Shown here piece after piece: positions 1 to 10,813 of a stretch of 64,000 nt of DNA. A program made the translations under genes and the position numbers. The notes beneath the pieces were generated by a model. That model was not told the origin of the DNA. It worked only from the letters and a program-made list of their open reading frames with translations, and ran no database searches. Every line of letters begins with the position of its first letter. Positions within the stretch are counted from its first letter, which is position 1. The stretch is from Squalus acanthias (taxonomy: Eukaryota). The stretch covers positions 4,898,001-4,962,000 of the forward strand of contig JASTWF010000034.1 in assembly GCA_030390025.1 (NCBI GenBank), read 5' to 3'.

Positions 1-546
1 AAGAACGCACTCCTTGTTAATTGAGAAAGACACAGAAAATACGTTGATTAAACTGATAACGTACAATTTAATTTGTTTTGAATGTTTGAAATAGGAGATT
101 AAAAATTGAGTGAACAATGAAGTTTGTTTGTTTGTCTCCCACTTTTCGTGGGGAAGAACCTAAAATAATTCAACTCTTTTCATGATAAGAGCAGGGATTA
201 ATATTTTGTAGAATGTCTGAGAGAAAAACATTTGAAGCGAAATAGGTAAATTATAAATCTTTAATTCAACATATGAATAAACATCTCCAAGTCAGTCTGA
301 CTGGTTCTGCTGTCCAGGAAGAAAGACAGATGATTATTTCTGTTCAGTCGTAGCTTTTCCTGCTTTGTGTTTATAATTAAGTGACGCAAATATTTTGTAT
401 ATTTGTCAATAATAAATTAACAGCAAATAATGACATTTCTGTGACAATTTTTATGTCTTAAAAGATTGCATTTGTGGCTCGGAATCTGGCTGGTAAATCT
501 AGTTTAATTACCTGAAAGACACTAGAATTCTTACACTGTGACCTGA

Positions 547-2044
547 ACATTACGCCTCAACGAACCACGCTGTGACCACTTATGCTCGCCTATGAGGGAA
601 GCCCACACCAGTGTCCATTACCAGTGCTAGATATGGAACCAAATCCAGTAAAGGCTAACGCCATACCCGGAGCTCCAAATGTGTACCTTGACAGGTCATC
701 ATACTGTGTAGATGGCCATCCTAGAACTGGATGCGCCCTTATTGATATCGACGCTCCCGATTGGTCAGCGGGATTTCACGTTCCCGTCCACTCCTCACAA
801 CAGGCAGAACTGATTGCAGTAATTCTAGCCGTACATTACACGGCTTTGGATGAAACAAATATCTGGTCCGACAGCAGTTACGTTTATAATACAGTTATGG
901 CTCTTCCCCTCTCGAATACCAATGAGTTTTGCTCATCAGAACATAAATCTTTATTACATTCTGGTCTCCTCCGTAAGCTATGGAAAGTGCTCCAGGAACG
1001 AGTCGCCCCTTGTCACGTGTGTAAGGTAGCAGCCCATCAGAAAGATTCATCCCCCCATTCTCGAGGTAACCAAATGGCCGATCGCTTTGCTAAGCAGGCG
1101 GCCGAGAACGGAAAGTTACTATCTTGGTGGGTATGAATAATACTCAGACACCCGTAGTGGGGGCGGTGACTAAGATTAAAACCATTGATCTTTTGGCCCT
1201 ACAGGATTCATATGCTCCTTATGCACAGCTAATAGCCTGGCATCAACAGGGATGCCCGGTACCAGCACCCACCCTATGGGCAGACTCCACTGTAATGCGA
1301 CAAGATGTAGATAAAAACCCTCCCCTAATAATGATCAGGAATAAAGAGGGTGACCTAGTAGTTTGTATTCCTCCTCAGTTAAAGGAAGACATTCTAGCTC
1401 TCTTTCATTCATTTCCCGGGGGCAGTTTTCACAACTCTGCAAGAAATGTTACAGATAAAACATAAATTGCACCTTGCGCCCCATCCACAATCATCAGGGA
1501 TTGTGGAGAGGGGAAATCGAACTTGAAAGACAATGTTGCAGAAGTTGTGTACAGATCACTCCACTCAGTGGACTGACATATTGCCTTTATGTCTAATGGC
1601 AATACGATCTACCCCACACGGGACTACGAGGGTAAGTCCATATGAGGCTATGACTGGGAGGCAAATGAGGATACCAGGACAAGCAATATATGAAAATAAC
1701 ACACCATTAAAACTACAACCATGTAGCCAAAAATGGTTACAAACCTTGGTAGATCATATGGATGAGGTGAGCAAGCTGGTGGCCATTAACATAGGCAAAT
1801 CGCGTGAACAAATCAAGCGATATTATAAGAGAGTAAAACCATTTGAGTATGATGTTGGAGACCGAGTAATGTCACACAATTTATCTCCAAAAAATCACTC
1901 ATTCGAGATAAAATCGATGGGCCCTCATACCACAGTAGATACATTAAATCCAGCTGTGTATCTACTGAATGTCCCAAATGGTCCGAAGGGAGACCTAAAC
2001 TGAAATGGCTCCATATCAATCAGATGAAAACTGTTAAGAATTAA
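547..2044 (+). pseudogene. pol: pol 3' fragment: linker (EGSPHQC), RNase H, and integrase with an internal deletion
   Basis: RNase H motifs VYLDRSS, SSQQAELIAV, IWSDSSYV, KVAAHQ...GNQMADRFAK (ORF 582-1136). Integrase N-terminal FHSFPGGSFH (ORF 1124-1465). Core end HLAPHPQSSGIVERGNRT*KTML, then W...LPLCLMAIRSTPHGTTRVSPYEAMTGR. C-terminal VGDRV...MGPH...KWLHINQMK, ending at TAA 2042-2044. Several frameshifts and stops. Confidence 0.9.
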
Positions 2045-2053
2045 GATGTTACA

Positions 2054-2070
2054 TTTAGATTTACCCACAG
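2054..2070 (+). promoter_or_regulatory. putative env splice acceptor
   Basis: tttagatttacccacAG|g lies between the pol stop (2044) and the env ATG (2078), where a retroviral env acceptor is expected. Confidence 0.5.
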
Positions 2071-2077
2071 GTTAAAG

Positions 2078-4594
2078 ATGTGGCTCTGTATGCTGATACT
2101 GATAATTGGATGTGCAGTGAGCTCTCCGGAGGTAACAAAATCTTTTGACATTACCATTAACATCTGTACACTGGACGAAGGAGGCGAATGCGTCCTACTC
2201 CACATCTATGGAACGGAAACTCGAATTGTTGGCGGACATAAATAATCAAAGAACTATCATGGACCATCCGAGACGTATGAGGAGGATGTTCCAGTTTGGA
2301 TCAGAAATAGTACAAAAGATAATATTACAACACCATACGTAACGGGTTTTGGTAAATTACAAGAAAAGGTGTATAATTAGGAAATAAAAGAAGGATATGG
2401 TGTGTGTATCAGGTGCGGGATAAGGTACTGGAAAGGCCCAAATGTGTGGAAATTCCCGAAGAAAAATAATGGAATCTGGGAACAGGTACAAGAATCCGAT
2501 CAGGGAGCAGTAGCTTCGGAAAGTAAGGGATATATACAATTATGCTGGACTCGGTGGTGGAAGAAAAATACCGGCCAGTATTCTTGTATTGGGTCGAATA
2601 TTATCATGGGCTTTAAAAATCAGGATGATGATTGGCCTCCTATTCCCGAATATGATGTAAAGATTACCTCAGCAGAATATGAGATTCCCAGAGACGATAT
2701 AGAGATCACCGCGGCAGAAAATAAACCCTTTTTGATAACCTTTATACGTTGGGGAAATTATAGGGATTTTGGGAATAAAGATAACAGCATAATATAATTC
2801 AAAAATGCGATAACTGGTTGTGTAAGGGAAGATGGGTATGTCTATAGTGTTAAGCTCACACCCTATGCGAAAGTAATATTAAGAACCACGAGAGGGTGTA
2901 CCCGAGGAACAATGTCCCCAACTAACAGCGGGACCTGGGAACGGTCTTGTAATTATACCCACCTATAAAGCAGTGTATCATCAAGTAATACCGGAAGTGG
3001 CCCCTGTTATTCTAAATTTTACAGAACTAATACTACCAAAGTGGTGCCCTGACAAAACAGCACAACTAACTCAGAGAATGCTGCAGCAGATTTTGAATCA
3101 GTACTGGGAAAAGGCGACCTTATCTATAAGTATAGAGAAAACAGAAGGCACCTTCCGTCACGAGTTTAGTACCACTAAAGACAGCAGCCAGGGAAAGAGT
3201 AGAGAGAAAGAGGATTGATAAACGATGGACTCACAGGTTTCAAGACAGTAACATCGGTAATTAACTCAATGGACTCCGCAGATTTACAAATACAATTACA
3301 AACGGTGAGGGAAAAGTTGAAGGAGATACTTAGTAGGGAAAACAACATAGTAAGCGAGGAGCTAAGGGATGATCAGGTAATGACCATACACCTGCGGGAC
3401 ATCATACATGAAATAGAGGATCATGGCAAAAGAATTAATGATCTGATTAGAGAAAACAAATGCCTCTGATCAAGCAGCCCATAATGACGTATGCGTTATG
3501 AACGGGAATTGGCTGATTGAACAAACTAGGGAAAAACTTCAGACCATCAATCAGGGACGTCTCCCCACTTGGGTCACTAATAAACACTTATCAGGGCTAT
3601 CCAATTATTACGATGGTGCAGAACTATGTAAGATCAGGAGTTTGATTAGAATCCACCCTGTTAAACGCGAATGCCACGAGTTAGGGAGTCAAAAGTTGAT
3701 GGGACTATTACTACAAATTCCTAGTCTAATGAATCGATCTGGACACAACCCCTGATTTAGGATAGAAAATATAGGAGTAGTACAAGGGAATACTATTACC
3801 CGATTTCTCACGGCACCACAATGGTTAGTACAATTAGGAAAACTAACATGGATTGAACCAAACCTCCAGGGATGCAATACAAATGAGGATGCCTTTGTCG
3901 GTCCATACCGTTTATATGAGCATTCAAAGGATACCTGTGGATATGGTTGGAATGAAGAAAGGTTAAACTGTACCATGGAAGTGACAGGCCCCTCAGATTT
4001 AAGAACTAGAACAGCCTACGTACGAGAAGGGAGGTATTGTTTTACCACTTTAGAAAACTCCTATAGTCATGGAAAAATTGAATGGTCAATAACCCCAGGG
4101 ACCTACTGTATTACTACTAGAAAGACTACAGTAATAGGAGGAAGAATTCTCCTTGTAATAGCCTCACATGGCCAACAAGTACTACAAACAAATTTAAAAA
4201 TAAATCTAGAAGATTATGTCACAAGATTCGGATATGACATCCCTGAGTTACCTGAAGCATTAGCCGAGCTAATAAGTCAAGTGAGCACCTCTCAACGTGA
4301 TTATTATACGTTGGTGCAAGGAAATAAAGACATTGCTGAGGAAATTCCAGACATCGAGACTCAGACCCACTGGTGGGATATATAGGAACAAATATGGACA
4401 TTTCCCCTTGGATTATAATAATTTCCCATGTACTGTTCATAGCCCAACTCATAGTACTAATATGCTTACTGCTGTACAACTGCTACCTGAAACACCTGAT
4501 GTCTAATACCCAATCATGTTTAAATATGATCACAACCCAAAATACCTTAGAGTTACACAAACGAAAGAGAACTAATCCATATGTAAGAGTTTAG
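2078..4594 (+). pseudogene. env: env pseudogene, F-protein-like class I fusion glycoprotein
   Basis: Signal peptide MWLCMLILIIGCAVSS at 2078. Furin site restorable as REKR|GLINDGLTGFKTVTSVINSMD by one base at ~3210. Heptad-like helix LQIQLQTVREKLKEIL...IIHEIEDHGKRINDLI. Long Cys-containing ectodomain, second helical region ...THWWD, transmembrane segment ISPWIIIISHVLFIAQLIVLICLLLYNC, and a short basic tail ending at 4594. Broken by stops and frameshifts. Confidence 0.82.
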
Positions 4595-4814
4595 TTTTGA
4601 GGGGTCGGCAAATGCATCGCCCTCAATGTAGGGATTTGTAGGGTAGGGTATATTTGTATGATTTAGTAAACATTCTTGTGCAACTATAATATGTGTAATT
4701 TTATGTTAAAAGCCTAAAAGCCTGTATAAAATGGCGAATGGCTGAGAGAGATGCAGGATGGGAAATTATGCCAAACCTGACTGAAACTCGCTCTATTTTC
4801 AATGACTGAAGTAA

Positions 4815-5987
4815 TGGAATGGAATGCTAAGTTTATGGAGACTGTCAGTAACGTGGAATGGAATGCTAAGTTTATGGAGACTGTCAGTAACGTGGAATGG
4901 AATGCTAAGTTTATGGAGACTGTCAGTAACGTGGAATGGAATGCTAAGTTTATGGAGACTGTCAGTAACGTGGAATGGAATGCTACGTTTATGGAGACTG
5001 TCAGTAACGTGGAATGGAATGCTAAGTTTATGGAGACTGTCAGTAACGTGGAATGGAATGCTAAGTTTATGGAGACTGTCAGTAACGTGGAATGGAATGC
5101 TAAGTTTATGGAGACTGTCAGTAACGTGGAATGGAATGCTAAGTTTATGGAGACTGTCAGTAACGTGGAATGGAATGCTAAGTTTATGGAGACTGTCAGT
5201 AACGTGGAATGGAATGCTAAGTTTATGGAGACTGTCAGTAACGTGGAATGGAATGCTAAGTTTATGGAGACTGTCAGTAACGTGGAATGGAATGCTACGT
5301 TTATGGAGACTGTCAGTAACGTGGAATGGAATGCTAAGTTTATGGAGACTGTCAGTAACGTGGAATGGAATGCTAAGTTTATGGAGACTGTCAGTAACGT
5401 GGAATGGAATGCTAAGTTTATGGAGACTGTCAGTAACGTGGAATGGAATGCTAAGTTTATGGAGACTGTCAGTAACGTGGAATGGAATGCTAAGTTTATG
5501 GAGACTGTCAGTAAGGTGGAATGGAATGCTAAGTTTATGGAGACTGTCAGTAAGGTGGAATGGAATGCTAAGTTTATGGAGACTGTCAGTAACGTGGAAT
5601 GGAATGCTAAGTTTATGGAGACTGTCAGTAACGTGGAATGGAATGCTAAGTTTATGGAGACTGTCAGTAACGTGGAATGGAATGCTAAGTTTATGGAGAC
5701 TGTCAGTAACGTGGAATGGAATGCTAAGTTTATGGAGACTGTCAGTAACGTGGAATGGAATGCTAAGTTTATGGAGACTGTCAGTAACGTGGAATGGAAT
5801 GCTAAGTTTATGGAGACTGTCAGTAACGTGGAATGGAATGCTAAGTTTATGGAGACTGTCAGTAACGTGGAATGGAATGCTAAGTTTATGGAGACTGTCA
5901 GTAACGTCGAATGGAATGCTAAGTTTATGGAGACTGTCAGTAACGTGGAACGGAATGCTAAGTTTATGGAGACTGTCAGTAACGTGG
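4815..5987. repeat. 39-bp minisatellite, 30 near-identical copies, inside the LTR U3
   Basis: Unit gtggaatggaatgctaagtttatggagactgtcagtaac. The translated repeat EWNAKFMETVSNV occurs 30 times in ORF 4802-6016, with only a handful of single-base variants. Confidence 0.98.
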
Positions 5988-6445
5988 TATTCAGTAATAT
6001 GATGGAAAAGAGATAAGAGAAGTGAAGAGAGAGAGAAATTGAAGGCACCCCTCAGTGATACCACTATAAAATGGACAGACTCTTTCGACAAAATCTTGGG
6101 AAATGCTATTTGGAAAGAGAACATCTAAAGATAAAGGGCACTTTGATATGCACAAAGCGAGACCTAGTGGGATCAACAAGGTCATAAAACATGTACCAGG
6201 TGTCGGATAGCTGATTGCAGTCACGTAGGCAAAGGAAGGGAAAGTGTATAAAGATACAGATATTGAACACTGAAGGCAGCGCGAAACAAGAATCAGAGTT
6301 GAAGGAGCTTCAGTCAAGAGAAAACAGCAAGCGAATAAAGAGACCGCACCACAGTCACTCAGAAGGAACGCCGAGGCTCAAACGAACAAGACTGTGACTA
6401 TCTCCTTGCTAAGTATGACTTATTTGTACTGGGTGTTCAATGCTT

Positions 6446-6451
6446 AATAAA
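6446..6451 (+). promoter_or_regulatory. LTR polyadenylation signal
   Basis: AATAAA about 90 bp before the LTR 3' end. Confidence 0.6.
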
Positions 6452-6538
6452 GCTGTTTTACATATACACAATATACCTGCACCCAGAGTGGTTTGAGTAG
6501 TCAAGGACAAATTATTATAAGAGCTTTTGGAAGCTACA

Positions 6539-7876
6539 CACCACAGGCCGGGAATGGAGTGTGAGTTCCCCCTTCTTTATGTATGGTTCAGTACCACACT
6601 GAATGAGAACTGACACACCACAGGTCAGGAATGGAGCCTGGGCTCTCCCTTCTCTGTGTGTGTGGCTCAGTCATTCACCGACTTTGAACAACAGACATAC
6701 CACAGGCCAGGAATGTAGCCTGAACCCTTGCTTCTCTGTGTGTGGTCCTCAGTACCTCTTTGACTGTGAACAACTGACATACCACAGGCCGGGAATGGAG
6801 CCTGAGCACCCCCTTCTCAGTGTGTGGGGCTCAGTAACTCACTAACTGTGGACAACTGACATACCACAGGCTGGGAATGGAGCCTGGGGACACCCTTCCG
6901 TGAGTGTGACTCAGTACCTTACCGACTGTGAACAACTGACATTCCACGGGAACTGGAATAGTGCCTGAGCCCTTCCTTCTCTGTGTGTGGGCCTCATTAC
7001 CATATCGAATGAGAACAACTGACACACTACAGGCCTGGTATGGAGCTCGGCCCTTCCTTCTCTGTGTTTGTGCCTCATTACCATACCGAATGAGAACAAC
7101 TGACACACCACAGGCCGGGAATGGAGCCTGACCCCTTCCTTCTCTGTGTGAGGGCCTCAGTACATCACCGACTGTGAACAACTGACATACCACAGACCGG
7201 GAATGGAGCCTGTCCCCTTCCTTCTCTGTGTGTGGGCCTCAGTACTTCACTGAGTGTGAACAAATGACACACAACGGACCGGCAATGTAGCCTGTCCCCT
7301 TCCTTCTCTGTGTGTTGGCCTCAGTACATCACCGACTGTGAACAACTAACATACCACAGGTCGGGAATTTAGCCTGGGCCCTTCCTTCTCTGTGTGTGGG
7401 TGTCAATACCTCAGCGACTGTAAACAATTAACACACCACAGGCCGGGAATGGAGCCTGAGTCCGTTCTTCTCTTTGTGTGGGCCTCAGTACCTCAACGAC
7501 AGTGAACAACTGACACACCACAGGCCGGGTATGGAGCCTGGGCCATTCAATCTCTGTGTGTGGGGCTCAGTACCTCACCAAATGAGAACAACTGACATAA
7601 CATGGGCCGGGAATGGAGCCTGAGCCCTTCCTTCTCTGTGAGTGGTCCTCAGTACCTCACCGAATGAGAACAACTGACATACCATGGGCCGGGAATGGAG
7701 CCTGAGCCCTTCCTTCTCTTTGTGTGGTCCTCAGTACCTCACCGAATGTGGACAATTAACAAAGCACTGGCCGGGAATGGAGCCTGTGCTCTCCATTCTC
7801 TGTGTGTGGGCCTCAGTTCCTCAGCAACTGTGAAGAAATAACATACCACAGCCCGGGAATGGAGATTGTGCCCTCC
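6539..7876. repeat. 82-bp satellite, block 1 (~16 diverged units)
   Basis: Unit approximately actgacataccacaggccgggaatggagcctgagcccttccttctctgtgtgtgggcctcagtacctcaccgactgtgaaca. Period 82 (e.g. 7181 to 7263). Confidence 0.95.
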
Positions 7877-10813
7877 CTACTTTTAGTCTGGAAGGCAGAG
7901 CAAATATGTAACGGCACAAGTGAGTATGGCAAGGCTAAATGGCATTTATTTTAGTGCAAGGAGTCTTACGTGTAAGGCAGATGAATTGAAGGTGTTGATG
8001 AATACACGGGAGGATGATATTGTTGCTATCACAGAGATATGGTTGAGGGAGGGGCAGGACTGGCAGCTCAATATACCAGGGTATAGAATCTTCAGGGAGA
8101 GGGAGGTGTAAAAGAGGAAGGGTGTCGCAATATTAATCAAGGAGTCAATTACTGCAGTAAGAAGGGATCTTCGCAGGTTCCTCTAATGAGACCATAAGGG
8201 TAGAACTTAAAAACAAAAAGGGGGCAAACACTTTGCTGGGAGTGTACTATAGGCCCCCAAACAGTCAGAGGGAGATAGAAGAACAGATATGTAGGCAAAT
8301 CTCAGAGAAATGTAGAAATAATAGTGTAATAATAGTCGGGGATTTTATCTTCCCCAATATTAACTGGGATTGTCAGAGTGTGAAAGGCTTAGACGGTGCG
8401 GAATTCTTAAAGTGCATCCAGGAGAGCTTTTTAAGAAAGCATGTAGAAAGTCCTACAATAGAGGGGGCGGTACTGGACCTAATTCTAGGGACTGTAGCCG
8501 GGCAAGTGGTAGAAATGTCATTAGGAGAGCATTTTGGTGACAGTGACCATAATTCGGTAAGATTTAAGGTCGTCATGGAAAAGGACAAAGATGGACTGGA
8601 AATACTGGTTCTAAATTGGGGGAAGGCCGATTTTAATATGACAGGCAGGATCTGGCCAATGTGGACTGAGTAAAGCTACTTGTAGGAAAATCCACATCGG
8701 AGCAGTAGGAGTCATTCAGAAAGGAAATAGAGAGAATACAGCGCCAACATGTTCCCGTAAAGGTCAAGGGTGGGACCAGCAAGTCCAGGAAACCCTGGAT
8801 GTCAAGGGATAAAGAAGAATGGATTAGGAAAGAAAGGGAGGCTTTTGACAGATACAAAGTACTAAAAACAGTGGAAGCCCTAGAGGAGTAAAGAAAGTCC
8901 ATGGGGGTACTTAAAGAACAAATTAGGAGAGCGTAGAGGGGGCATGAAAAAACACTGGCGGGAAAAAATAAAGAAAAATCCCAAGGTTTTATTTTAAGTA
9001 TATTAAGGGCAAGAGGATAACCAGGGAAAGAGTAGGGCCCATTAGGGACCAAAGTGGCAATCTGTGTGTATAACCGAAAGATGTAGGTGAGGTTTAAAAT
9101 TAATATTTTGCATCTCTGTTCACTATGGAGAAGGACGATGTAGGCATAGAAATCAGGCAGCGGGATTGTGGTATACTTGAACAAATTAGCACTGAGAGGG
9201 AGGCGGTGCTGGTGGTTTTAGCGGGCTATAAATGTGGATAAATTCGCAGGCCCAGACGAGATGTATCCCAGGCTGCAGTGTGAGGCAAGGGAGGAGATTG
9301 CAGGGGCTCTGACATAAATTTTCAGAACCTCTCTGGCCACAGGGGAGGTGCCAGATGACTGGAGAACAGCTAACGTAGTACCATTATTCAAGAAGGATAG
9401 TAATGATAAACCAGGGAATGACAGGCCAATGAGCCAAACATCAGTGGTAGGGAAATTATTGGAAAACATTCTGAGGGACAGAATTAGTCTCCACTTGGAG
9501 AGGCAAGAATTAATCAAGGATAGTCAGCATGGCTTTGTCAGGGGGAGATCATGTCTAAACAATTTGATTGAATTTTTCGAGGGGGTGACTAGGTGTATGG
9601 ATGAGGGCAGTGCAGTTGAAATGTCTACATGGATTTCCGTAAGGCTTTTGCCAAAGTCCTGCATGGGAGACTGAACAAGAATGTAACTGCCCATGGGATC
9701 CAGGGCAATTTGGCACATTGGATCCAAAATTGGCTTAGTGGCAGGAGGCACAGTGTGATGGTCGAAGATAGTTTTTGTGACTAGAAGCCTGTCTCCAGTG
9801 GTGTACCGCAGGGATCGGTGCTGGGTCCCTTGCTGTTTGTAGTGTAAATTACTGATTTAGATATGAATGTAGGAGGTATGATCAGTAAGTTCGCAGATGA
9901 CACGAAAATTGGTGAAGTAGTAAATAGCGAGGAGGGAAGCCTCAGGCTACAGGACGATATAGACGGGTTGGTCAGATGGGCAGAACAGTGGCAAATTGAA
10001 TTTCACCCTGAAAAATGTGAGGTGATGCATTTTTGGAGGACTAACATGCCAAGGGAATAAACAATGAATGGTATGACCCTAGGAAGGGCAGATAATCAGA
10101 GGGACCTTGGTGTGCATGCATATAGATACATGAAGGCAGCAGGAGAGGTAGATAATGTGTTTAAAAAGGCATATGGGATGCTTGCCTTCATTAGCCGAGG
10201 CATAGAAGATAAGAGCAGAGAGGTTATGATGGAGCTGTACAAAACGCTAGTTAGGCCACAGCTGGAATATTGTGTTCAGTTCTGGTCACCACACTATAGG
10301 AAGGATGTGATTGCATTGGAGAGGGTGCAGAGGAGATTCACCAGGATGTTACCTGGGCTGGAGCGTTTCAGCTATGAAGAGAGACTGGACAGGCTGGGGT
10401 TGTTTTTCTTAGACCATAGAAGGCTGAGGGGGGACCTGATTGAGGTGTACAAAATTATGAGGGGCATAGATAGGGTAGATAGAAAGGACATTTTCCCCTT
10501 AGTAAAGGGGTCACTAACCAGGGGGCATAGTTTCAAGGTAAGTGGCAGGAGGTTTAGAGGGGATTTGAGGAAACCCTTTTTCACCCAGAGGGTGGATGGA
10601 ATCTGGAACTCACTGCCTGAAAGGGTGGTAGAGGCAGCAACACTCACAAAATTCAAGAAGCATTTAGATGAGCACTTGAAACGCCATAGCAGACAAGGCT
10701 ACGGACCAAGTGCTGGAAAATGAGATTATAATAGATAGGGCTTGATGGCCGGCGCAGACATGATGGGCCGAAGGGCCTCTTTCTGTGCTGTATATCTCTA
10801 TGACTCTATGACT
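7877..10813 (+). mobile_element. CR1-clade LINE, 5'-truncated, decayed ORF2 (APE endonuclease + RT), copy 1
   Basis: APE motifs DIVAITEIWL, GVYYRPPNS, IVGDF.FPNINW, LDLILG, GDSDHN. RT motifs WRTANVVPLFKK, QHGFVRGRSCL, GVPQGSVLGP, SKFADDTKI. C-terminal LYKTLVRPQLEYCVQFWSP. 3' tail ctctatgactctatgact. Confidence 0.95.

Follow-up and report, generated by a model that had tools for sequence, protein, structure and literature searches.

A 64,000-nucleotide stretch of the Squalus acanthias genome (assembly GCA_030390025.1, contig JASTWF010000034.1, positions 4,898,001 to 4,962,000 of the forward strand; called the window below) was found to carry the remains of an endogenous retrovirus (ERV) at window positions 520-6538. 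The element is probably a decayed, 5'-truncated provirus of a high-copy family, whose envelope gene (env) is predicted to encode a class I fusion protein with the fold of paramyxovirus F and foamy virus Env. The original prediction, made from the letters of the window, had proposed an ERV with an F-type envelope at 547..4594 and had inferred it to be lokiretrovirus-like. The ERV was confirmed by an RNase H domain, an integrase remnant, env and a 3' long terminal repeat (LTR), as well as by fuller copies in the same genome. The proposed extent was too short: the element is real, but homology to other copies spans 520-6538, as established by DNA comparison with L015, L013 and L014, and the 3' LTR at 4636-6538 had been left out. 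These three contiguous stretches of another contig make up the fuller copy, C6, used as reference throughout this study.

Predicted fold of the envelope protein

The envelope of the family could be read from natural open frames of the genome. The 715-residue frame P0001 contains the furin-type cleavage site SRQKR/GLINDGLAGF (the slash marks the cut) followed by 453 residues, close to the ~460 originally proposed, and the intact site SRQKR/GLINDG is seen in L007, L011 and L029. Two longer N-terminal frames place ~390 residues between the signal peptide and the cut. A hydrophobic stretch is found near the C-terminal end of P0001, where residues 664-714 were modelled as a helix.

An AlphaFold model of P0001 was built from a 51-row alignment comprising database relatives and natural frames of this genome. 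Its mean predicted local distance difference test (pLDDT) score was 63, with values of 80-97 over residues ~160-230 and 350-585. When the model was compared with 48,161 PDB representative chains using VIA-align, all ten top rows were F proteins or foamy Env, with Z scores of 11.0-7.8 and covering P0001 residues ~170-585. The highest score was obtained with parainfluenza virus 5 F (2b9b, Z 11.0), followed by the F proteins of Ghanaian virus (Z 10.9, root-mean-square deviation (rmsd) 7.9, 305 residues aligned), Newcastle disease virus (NDV; Z 10.6), human parainfluenza virus 3 (8tqk, Z 10.2, rmsd 6.2, 322 aligned) and measles virus (9coh, Z 10.1). Foamy Env (8rm0) scored Z 9.6 with 294 residues aligned and, at 5.6, the lowest rmsd of the top rows. 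The remaining rows were human metapneumovirus F (Z 9.0), two of respiratory syncytial virus F (Z 8.3 and 8.1, with 8wsq among the entries) and a second entry of human metapneumovirus F (Z 7.8). Below these, unrelated rows consisted of single helices with Z ~6. An F-type fold, including the beta-rich core of domains I-III and the heptad helices, is a well-supported prediction for this envelope, in line with what had been proposed from the window alone.

Several observations weigh against this assignment. In the model, 300 of the 715 residues have a pLDDT below 50, including residues 1-159 and the post-cut residues 238-325, and the underlying alignment is shallow, with many of its 51 rows coming from one genome. 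Several F rows showed very large rmsd values (26.7, 29.0), which can be explained by the difference between pre- and post-fusion forms. For a fusion peptide, the residues behind the cut, GLINDGLAGFNTVTSV, have no more than mild hydrophobicity. At the sequence level, no Pfam family was found for env, either among 12 pieces of the window or in P0001 at E <= 1. In particular, PF00523 was matched neither by P0001 at E <= 1 nor by 25 of its relatives at E <= 0.01. Likewise, a profile search of PDB sequences with env returned only coiled-coil noise (best E 0.06).

In agreement with the original prediction, the envelope does not resemble the gamma type: P0001 has no TLV_coat match in Pfam, no CX6CC motif is visible in this frame, and the comparison of env profile A1 with a gamma-type env (L078) gave an hhalign probability of 0.9%. 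Nor is it a foamy Env by sequence, an outcome for which the original prediction had named the comparison beforehand; P0001 lacks a Foamy_virus_ENV match in Pfam, and hhalign against foamy env gave 2%. For the N-terminal 400 residues, no family was found in Pfam at E <= 10. An Ig-like domain, which appears in the UniRef name of P0006, was not seen in the N-terminal subunit, for which there was no Pfam match and where residues 1-159 were modelled with a pLDDT of ~30.

With paramyxovirus and pneumovirus F, the shark envelope has in common the predicted fold, a fusion subunit that is preceded by a basic cleavage site and ends in a membrane anchor, and a pair of helical regions. It differs in showing only 8-11% identity in the fold alignments, with no sequence-profile link, in being encoded by a retrovirus, and in having a long additional N-terminal stretch ahead of its F2-like part. 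The length of the N-terminal subunit is ~4 times that in F or in the lokiretroviral Loki-Xtr Env. As described in the consulted part of Fernandez et al. (2024, PMC11468914), foamy Env also shares the F core and has been termed 'subclass Ib'. Foamy Env (8rm0/8rm1) is a retroviral Env for which this core has already been shown. It differs from the shark envelope in the lack of sequence homology, and the same part of that study describes, as foamy features, a receptor-binding module inserted between the subunits and a leader peptide. The shark family is further distinguished from foamy viruses by a zinc-knuckle Gag and by gag and pol lying in one frame.

By analogy with F, the envelope precursor would carry a signal peptide, a furin-type protease would cleave it at RQKR, and the C-terminal anchor would hold it in the membrane. 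Fusion would then proceed by refolding of the post-cut helix and the pre-anchor helix around the beta-rich core, as in F, and the N-terminal subunit of ~390 residues would be likely to carry receptor binding.

Protein relatives of env were retrieved by an exhaustive phmmer search, which returned 42 sequences, 29 of them at E <= 1e-10; among the 10 that were looked up, 5 were from sharks or skate and 3 from frogs. A word-indexed protein search gave no env relative in the range of 393-1252 residues. In some of these proteins the env-like stretch is joined to other domains, namely to cadherin domains in P0021 and to an F-box in P0037, while in P0013 it lies in a protein named 'Niban 1-like' by its source. 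All three are probably gene-model chimeras over ERV fragments.

Structure and decay of the copy in the window

All coding and LTR features of the copy are read on the forward strand. The 5' truncation point lies at window position 520, corresponding to L013 6726, and the first 56 positions (520-575) encode the end of the reverse transcriptase (RT) tether, or connection, region. Upstream of 520, no match to L013, L014 or L015 was found; the copy lacks its 5' LTR, gag, protease and RT. An open frame of 186 codons at 576-1136, opening with ...LMLAYEGSPHQCPLPV, encodes the retroviral RNase H domain, whose presence had been proposed and was confirmed by a match of residues 35-176 to Pfam RNase_H (PF00075; E 1.6e-15, 58 bits). 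The RNase H region shares 93% DNA identity with L013.

The integrase, also part of the original prediction, is present only as a remnant at 1094-2044. This remnant, identified by alignment to L013, is distributed over several frames with a stop at 1524-1526, and its pieces are 93-98% identical to the integrase of L013 at the DNA level. It consists of the N-terminal linker, a deletion, the end of the catalytic core and the C-terminal part, in this order. In the alignment, window 1360-1410 corresponds to L013 7642-7692 and 1417-1532 to L013 8097-8212, with ~404 bp of L013 (7693-8096) absent between window 1410 and 1417. This deletion has taken away the greater part of both the HHCC zinc finger and the catalytic core. 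Neither of the two pieces compared with Pfam, 1094-1465 and 1527-2003, gave a match, whereas the L013 frame at 7586-8566 matches both Integrase_H2C2 (2.3e-18) and rve (3.5e-13).

The env pseudogene occupies 2078-4594, from an ATG at 2078 with a signal-peptide-like start (MWLCMLILIIGCAVSS) to a stop at 4592-4594, and shows 87-93% protein identity to the natural frames P0001 and P0004. The ~830 codons interrupted by stops and frameshifts that had been proposed were found as ~838 codons with four premature stops (2243, 2378, 2795 and 3753) and four frameshifts (near 2880, 3210, 3455 and 4382). Once these are bridged, its layout comprises a signal peptide, an N-terminal subunit of ~390 residues, the cleavage site, a fusion subunit of ~450 residues and the C-terminal membrane anchor. 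The furin-type cleavage site remnant at 3196-3218 is split between the frames 2883-3218 and 3203-3469. As the frameshift near 3210 lies within it, the site reported earlier as REKR/GL is a bridged reading, although a furin-type site at this place is real, given its intact form in other copies.

The 3' LTR extends over 1.9 kb (4636-6538), compared with 807 bp in the reference copy. Two parts of it, window 4636-4859 and 5939-6538, align with each of the C6 LTRs (L015 5643-6449 and L014 2020-2826), and across the part that joins them Tandem Repeats Finder detected a 39-bp minisatellite of 30 copies that are 99% alike (4815-5987). All its units match one site, L014 2199-2243, and a single unit is present in other copies. 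Thus, the length of the LTR in the window is due to the expansion of this minisatellite from one LTR unit. The copy in the window is dead and without function.

The family in the S. acanthias genome

In a search of the 3.7-Gb genome, 150 env matches were scored out of 8340 candidates, all of them at E <= 4e-40; their identities lie between 36% and 100%, and the longest open frame has 767 residues. For RT, 150 matches were scored out of 14770 candidates. The search for fuller copies that had been suggested for this element was successful, yielding two LTRs, a CCHC gag and protease-RT frames.

The C6 copy is bounded by LTRs of 807 bp each that are 96.9% identical. The primer-binding site after its 5' LTR is presumably of the Lys1,2 type. 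Gag carries a CCHC knuckle, detected as zf-CCHC in the C26 copy (E 8e-8) and visible as a CCHC pattern in L013. In L013, a TGA at 519-521 is followed in frame by the protease. A natural 828-residue frame of the family matches RVT_1, RT_RNaseH_2 (the tether) and RNase_H in Pfam and, weakly, RVP. Natural frames of the family integrase match Integrase_H2C2 and rve. The gene set is that of a true retrovirus: a CCHC Gag, a stop codon after gag with protease-RT in the same frame, a tether with RNase H, and an integrase of the H2C2 and rve type.

The dN/dS ratio (nonsynonymous to synonymous substitution rates) of env was 0.22-0.25 in six between-subfamily pairs (dS 0.33-0.56). Two pairs gave 0.37 and the two most closely related ones 0.57-0.60; five further pairs, involving the most distant copy, were saturated. 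The low values between subfamilies indicate purifying selection on env during the divergence of the lineages, which is what would be anticipated for an infectious virus. As a rough estimate, the 3.1% divergence between the LTRs of the C6 copy corresponds to ~7 million years at a mammalian rate, or to ~70 million years at the tenfold lower shark rate assumed by PMC4422223.

Some further features of the family were noted. In C6, the frame with which gag begins (L015 6508-7281), judging from its translation, opens with ~250 residues that are apparently rich in coiled-coil heptads and reminiscent of the SMC-like gene reported in some lokiretroviruses; its sole match was a weak one to DUF3944 (E 0.002). 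The same copy is interrupted within RT by a minus-strand retroelement (L013 2750-5838) which, judging from the printed frames, has an 818-residue pol-like frame and a separate 341-residue frame upstream. A related ERV with RT ~64% identical lies on the minus strand of L025 (2065-5715). In its 1217-residue printed frame, RT continues into what appears to be a second reverse-transcriptase sequence, an apparent insertion that has kept the frame open.

Position of pol among retroviruses

Against PDB sequences, pol of the family scored 213 bits with foamy protease-RT, ~200 with RT of xenotropic murine leukemia virus-related virus and murine leukemia virus (XMRV/MLV), 183 with prototype foamy virus and 148 with Ty3. 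Its best protein-database match is the Xenopus tropicalis protein P0062 (55%), followed by four proteins at 42-45%, frog included, three of which are named 'NYNRIN-like' by NCBI. Further matches were found in coelacanth (39%), Amia and Pimephales, and then in gamma-like ERVs near 30%.

A quick IQ-TREE analysis of the RT-RNase H region was performed on 53 rows, consisting of 23 viral pol frames, 29 of 120 listed database proteins and the query. To limit the size of the tree, L048, L052, L059, L061, L067, L070, L072, L075 and L077 were left out without prior comparison, and P0076 was excluded for a long insert; L078, identified later, is not in it either, and the rows included no Loki, snakehead-retrovirus, shark foamy-like ERV (FLERV) or CmiERV, fish or frog FLERV, or class II references. 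The viral references were labelled by Pfam through scanning of 19 env frames, 2 gag frames and 2 pol-only records, a record being taken as gamma-type if its env matched TLV_coat and as foamy if it matched Foamy_virus_ENV; the nine foamy reference env frames matched the latter with ~1500-1660 bits. In the resulting tree, pol of the shark family was joined to X. tropicalis P0062 with support of 99 and to coelacanth and frog proteins with 96, within a clade of eight (88). Rooted on Ty3/gypsy, this clade was placed outside foamy, epsilon-type and gamma rows with support of 84, a node that was drawn open. The foamy references formed a clade supported at 100 and the gamma and L062-like rows one supported at 99, both without the shark family. 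An approximately unbiased (AU) test rejected a single clade of the shark family's own clade and the L062-like rows (p 2.6e-6).

Two points call for caution here: the group tested was chosen after the tree had been seen, and the tree is a quick one, with deep nodes of 84-88 only and a very long foamy branch. In this quick tree, pol falls within a deep lineage that also comprises frog and coelacanth elements and is separate from the references included for gamma, epsilon-type and mammalian foamy viruses.

The likeliest names for this lineage, inferred from PMC5512871, PMC4422223 and PMC6001957, are the foamy-like ERVs of frogs and sharks and the lineage related to snakehead retrovirus. According to this possibility, the element would be one of the shark/frog FLERVs (CmiFLERV/XtrFLERV) or of the class III 'clade Huo' related to snakehead retrovirus, its pol would already be published and only its env would be new. 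We regard this as a serious possibility, though slightly less likely than not. It is compatible with the best explanation, a decayed provirus with an F-type envelope, the one difference being what the pol lineage is called. The best pol match is an X. tropicalis protein, and in the consulted part of PMC5512871 the X. tropicalis FLERV is nested in shark FLERVs, with only pol found for either. The foamy protease-RT is also the best PDB match (213 against 200 bits for XMRV/MLV), and a snakehead-retrovirus-like lineage was reported from elephant shark (PMC4422223). On the other hand, the clade was not joined to the foamy references in the quick tree, whose rows lack fish, shark and frog FLERVs. 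The family has a Gag with a CCHC knuckle, a feature described in the consulted part of PMC5210030 as absent from foamy viruses and fish foamy-like ERVs, and its env is not of the foamy type by sequence. CmiFLERV and XtrFLERV (PMC5512871) and the elephant-shark CmiERVs (PMC4422223) resemble the present family in being cartilaginous-fish ERVs with frog relatives. They differ in that, in the parts of these sources consulted, they were defined from pol, and no env is reported there for CmiFLERV or XtrFLERV. More generally, no env is reported for shark elements in the consulted parts of PMC5512871 and PMC10699275.

Comparison with lokiretroviruses

Membership in the lokiretroviruses (lokiortervirus), with the shark family as their representative in cartilaginous fishes, would fit the Loki-like element originally inferred, but it now appears unlikely. 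CGIN1, beside which the lokiretroviral integrase has been placed, is presumably the same gene as NYNRIN, after which the nearest pol relatives of the shark family are named. In the consulted parts of Wang and Han (2020, PMC7947760), RT of Loki forms the sister clade of canonical retroviruses, its RNase H clusters with that of foamy viruses and its integrase with CGIN1, while Loki Env matches PF00523 (E 2.2e-7) and is likened to F of Mononegavirales. Several features of the shark family agree with these descriptions. The position of its clade in the quick tree, outside the foamy, gamma and epsilon references, is the published position of Loki, and Integrase_H2C2 and rve are present as drawn for Loki. 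Nevertheless, the tether with RNase H and the H2C2/rve integrase do not discriminate, because they are common to other retroviruses. The Env layout is also that published for Loki, with a signal peptide, an RXKR cut, a helix (coiled coil), a Cys-bearing ectodomain, a second helix and a membrane anchor. Short motifs (PGP..G, RxKR, GR(I/L)P and a C..F.C...CG...C block) were recognized by eye in one and the same order in the shark envelope and in the Loki-Xtr Env printed in the supplement.

Other features set the two apart. By eye, the Loki RT rows in the available part of the PMC7947760 supplement carry CPFGY..NSP and I/LYVDDIL, compared with LQQGFHNSP and LQYVDDLLL in the shark family, whose motifs are unlike those of all the Loki rows read. 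Four 15-residue words around YVDD, from the shark family and its three nearest relatives, were not found in the part of the supplement searched. RT words common to both (WRLTIDYR, ANGFW, DQYK.AF and LRSFLG..NY.R.FI) were also recognized by eye in the same rows, and a kinship with Loki, such as a sister relation, may exist. Against membership, PF00523 is matched by Loki Env but neither by P0001 nor by its 25 relatives at the thresholds given above, Loki was detected in none of six cartilaginous-fish genomes according to the supplement's Fig. S1 as consulted, and the N-terminal subunit of Loki-Xtr Env measures ~110 residues against ~390 in the shark family. The shark envelope is probably of the same kind as that of Loki while its pol is probably not Loki, a distinction drawn from motifs and matches, as the tree holds no Loki sequence.

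Homology with an epsilon-type envelope

At the sequence level, a single env relative was found among virus records. L062 (IMGVR_UViG_638277100_000001), an exogenous epsilon-type retrovirus record of 12,708 nucleotides with an env of 1229 residues at 5962-9648, was found through a pol scan of the viral collection, in which two pol-only records (L056 and L063) resemble it. Its env matches no Pfam family. Comparison of env profile A1 with L062 env gave an hhalign probability of 96% (E 4.4e-9, 349 columns, 19% identity), with the cleavage sites and several short motifs in register; of the controls, the L054 env gave 0.2% and the gamma-type and foamy envs the low values given above. When the viral collection was scanned with pol again, for a snakehead-retrovirus-like record, one new record was added, L078, with its gamma-type env.

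A model of an L062 env fragment was weak (mean pLDDT 58.8, predicted template modelling score 0.36). Foamy Env (Z 8.2) was the sole structure to reach Z >= 8, and NDV F scored Z 6.4 with an rmsd of 20. Since its alignment consisted mostly of shark-family sequences, this foamy match is only a hint and not independent. There are hints, then, that the epsilon-type Env may also have an F fold. This Env has been described as lying outside the beta/gamma classification, and modelling of its surface subunit failed (10.1101/2021.11.05.467493).

The homology with L062 raises the possibility that the element is an ordinary epsilon-like ERV (class I, 'clade Mu') with a plain epsilonretroviral env. Besides the 96% env match, a gag stop followed by in-frame pol and a CCHC Gag agree with this, and epsilon-like ERVs have been reported from elephant shark (PMC4422223). 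However, pol of L062 adjoins the gamma references and that of the shark family does not: the branch supported at 99 excludes it from the gamma and L062-like clade, in agreement with the AU test. No MLVIN_C match was obtained in the integrase pieces of the family, whereas this domain is present in the L062-like records L056 and L063, a weak point because the copies tested are broken there. Overall, an ordinary epsilon-like ERV is quite improbable. The least probable alternative by far, an errantivirus-like Ty3/gypsy element with an F-type env rather than a retrovirus, could appeal to the frequency of F-type env in metazoan errantiviruses (PMC13524379) and to a sub-threshold Baculo_F match of P0037 (E 0.0011), but the seven Ty3/gypsy proteins formed a group supported at 100 apart from all retroviral rows, the shark family included, as the original prediction had implied, the family has a tether and an added RNase H, and PMC13524379 found no vertebrate ERV homologous to the invertebrate elements.

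Envelope and pol of this family have histories that disagree, as env is homologous to that of L062 while the pol tree separates them. The F-type env is either old in retroviruses or has been moved by recombination.

Surroundings of the element

Three loci (L002, L003 and L004, two of them on other contigs) are 98.2-98.7% identical to window 2256-7015, and all three carry the 278-residue frame of the window copy. In L002 and L004 the match does not stop with the LTR but extends into the satellite that flanks it, indicating that the dead element spread by segmental duplication and not by new insertion. Judging from these matches, the window copy appears to have been duplicated in this way at least three more times. 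The copy number of the minisatellite varies among the sister duplicates.

The flanking satellite starts exactly at the LTR end and belongs to arrays of an 82-bp unit (76-83% matches) at window 6536-7878, 10815-12041 and 14791-15002. The second half of the window is occupied by a G+C-rich satellite of 42 bp (60% GC, ~700 units, 81-85% matches), extending over ~30 kb (34068-63959).

Beside the C26 copy, two host-like frames were observed (L022 1438-2859 and L023 6696-7613). An IRG-type interferon-inducible GTPase gene lies there, 64% identical to a Heterodontus protein, 54-58% to other shark proteins and, among the matches listed, at most 50% to those of bony vertebrates. Together with the env relatives, most of which come from elasmobranchs, this gene makes a shark the likely host, as had been proposed from the window alone. 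The second host-like frame, of 306 residues, has the look of a seven-helix receptor in the printed frame.

Implications for the evolution of retroviral envelopes

Among retroviruses, F-fold envelopes have been recognized in lokiretroviruses (2020, from sequence; PMC7947760) and in foamy viruses (2024, from structure; PMC11468914), according to the consulted parts of these studies. In the literature searched, which did not extend to the J Virol 2023 work on cartilaginous-fish foamy viruses, no description was found of an F-fold env in a cartilaginous-fish or epsilon-type retrovirus. The envelope predicted here would be borne by a pol that is neither Loki-like in its motifs nor epsilon-like in the tree, and yet it is homologous to an epsilon-type env. 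The F-type envelope is likely to be more widespread among retroviruses than described, and it seems to occur with at least four kinds of retroviral pol, those of Loki, foamy viruses, epsilon-type viruses and the shark lineage.

A broader proposal can be made only tentatively, and we hold it with more doubt than confidence: the F-fold Env might be the ancestral envelope of vertebrate retroviruses, the gamma- and beta-type Env a later replacement, and each lineage might have added its own receptor-binding module to the F core. If this were true, one fusion machine would be shared by lokiretroviruses, foamy viruses, epsilon-type fish retroviruses and the shark/frog lineage, with pols that span the base of the retroviral tree. 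With its many natural copies, the family described in this study provides ample material for comparisons of this type of envelope, and would bear on the origin of retroviral envelopes and on how often they have been exchanged.

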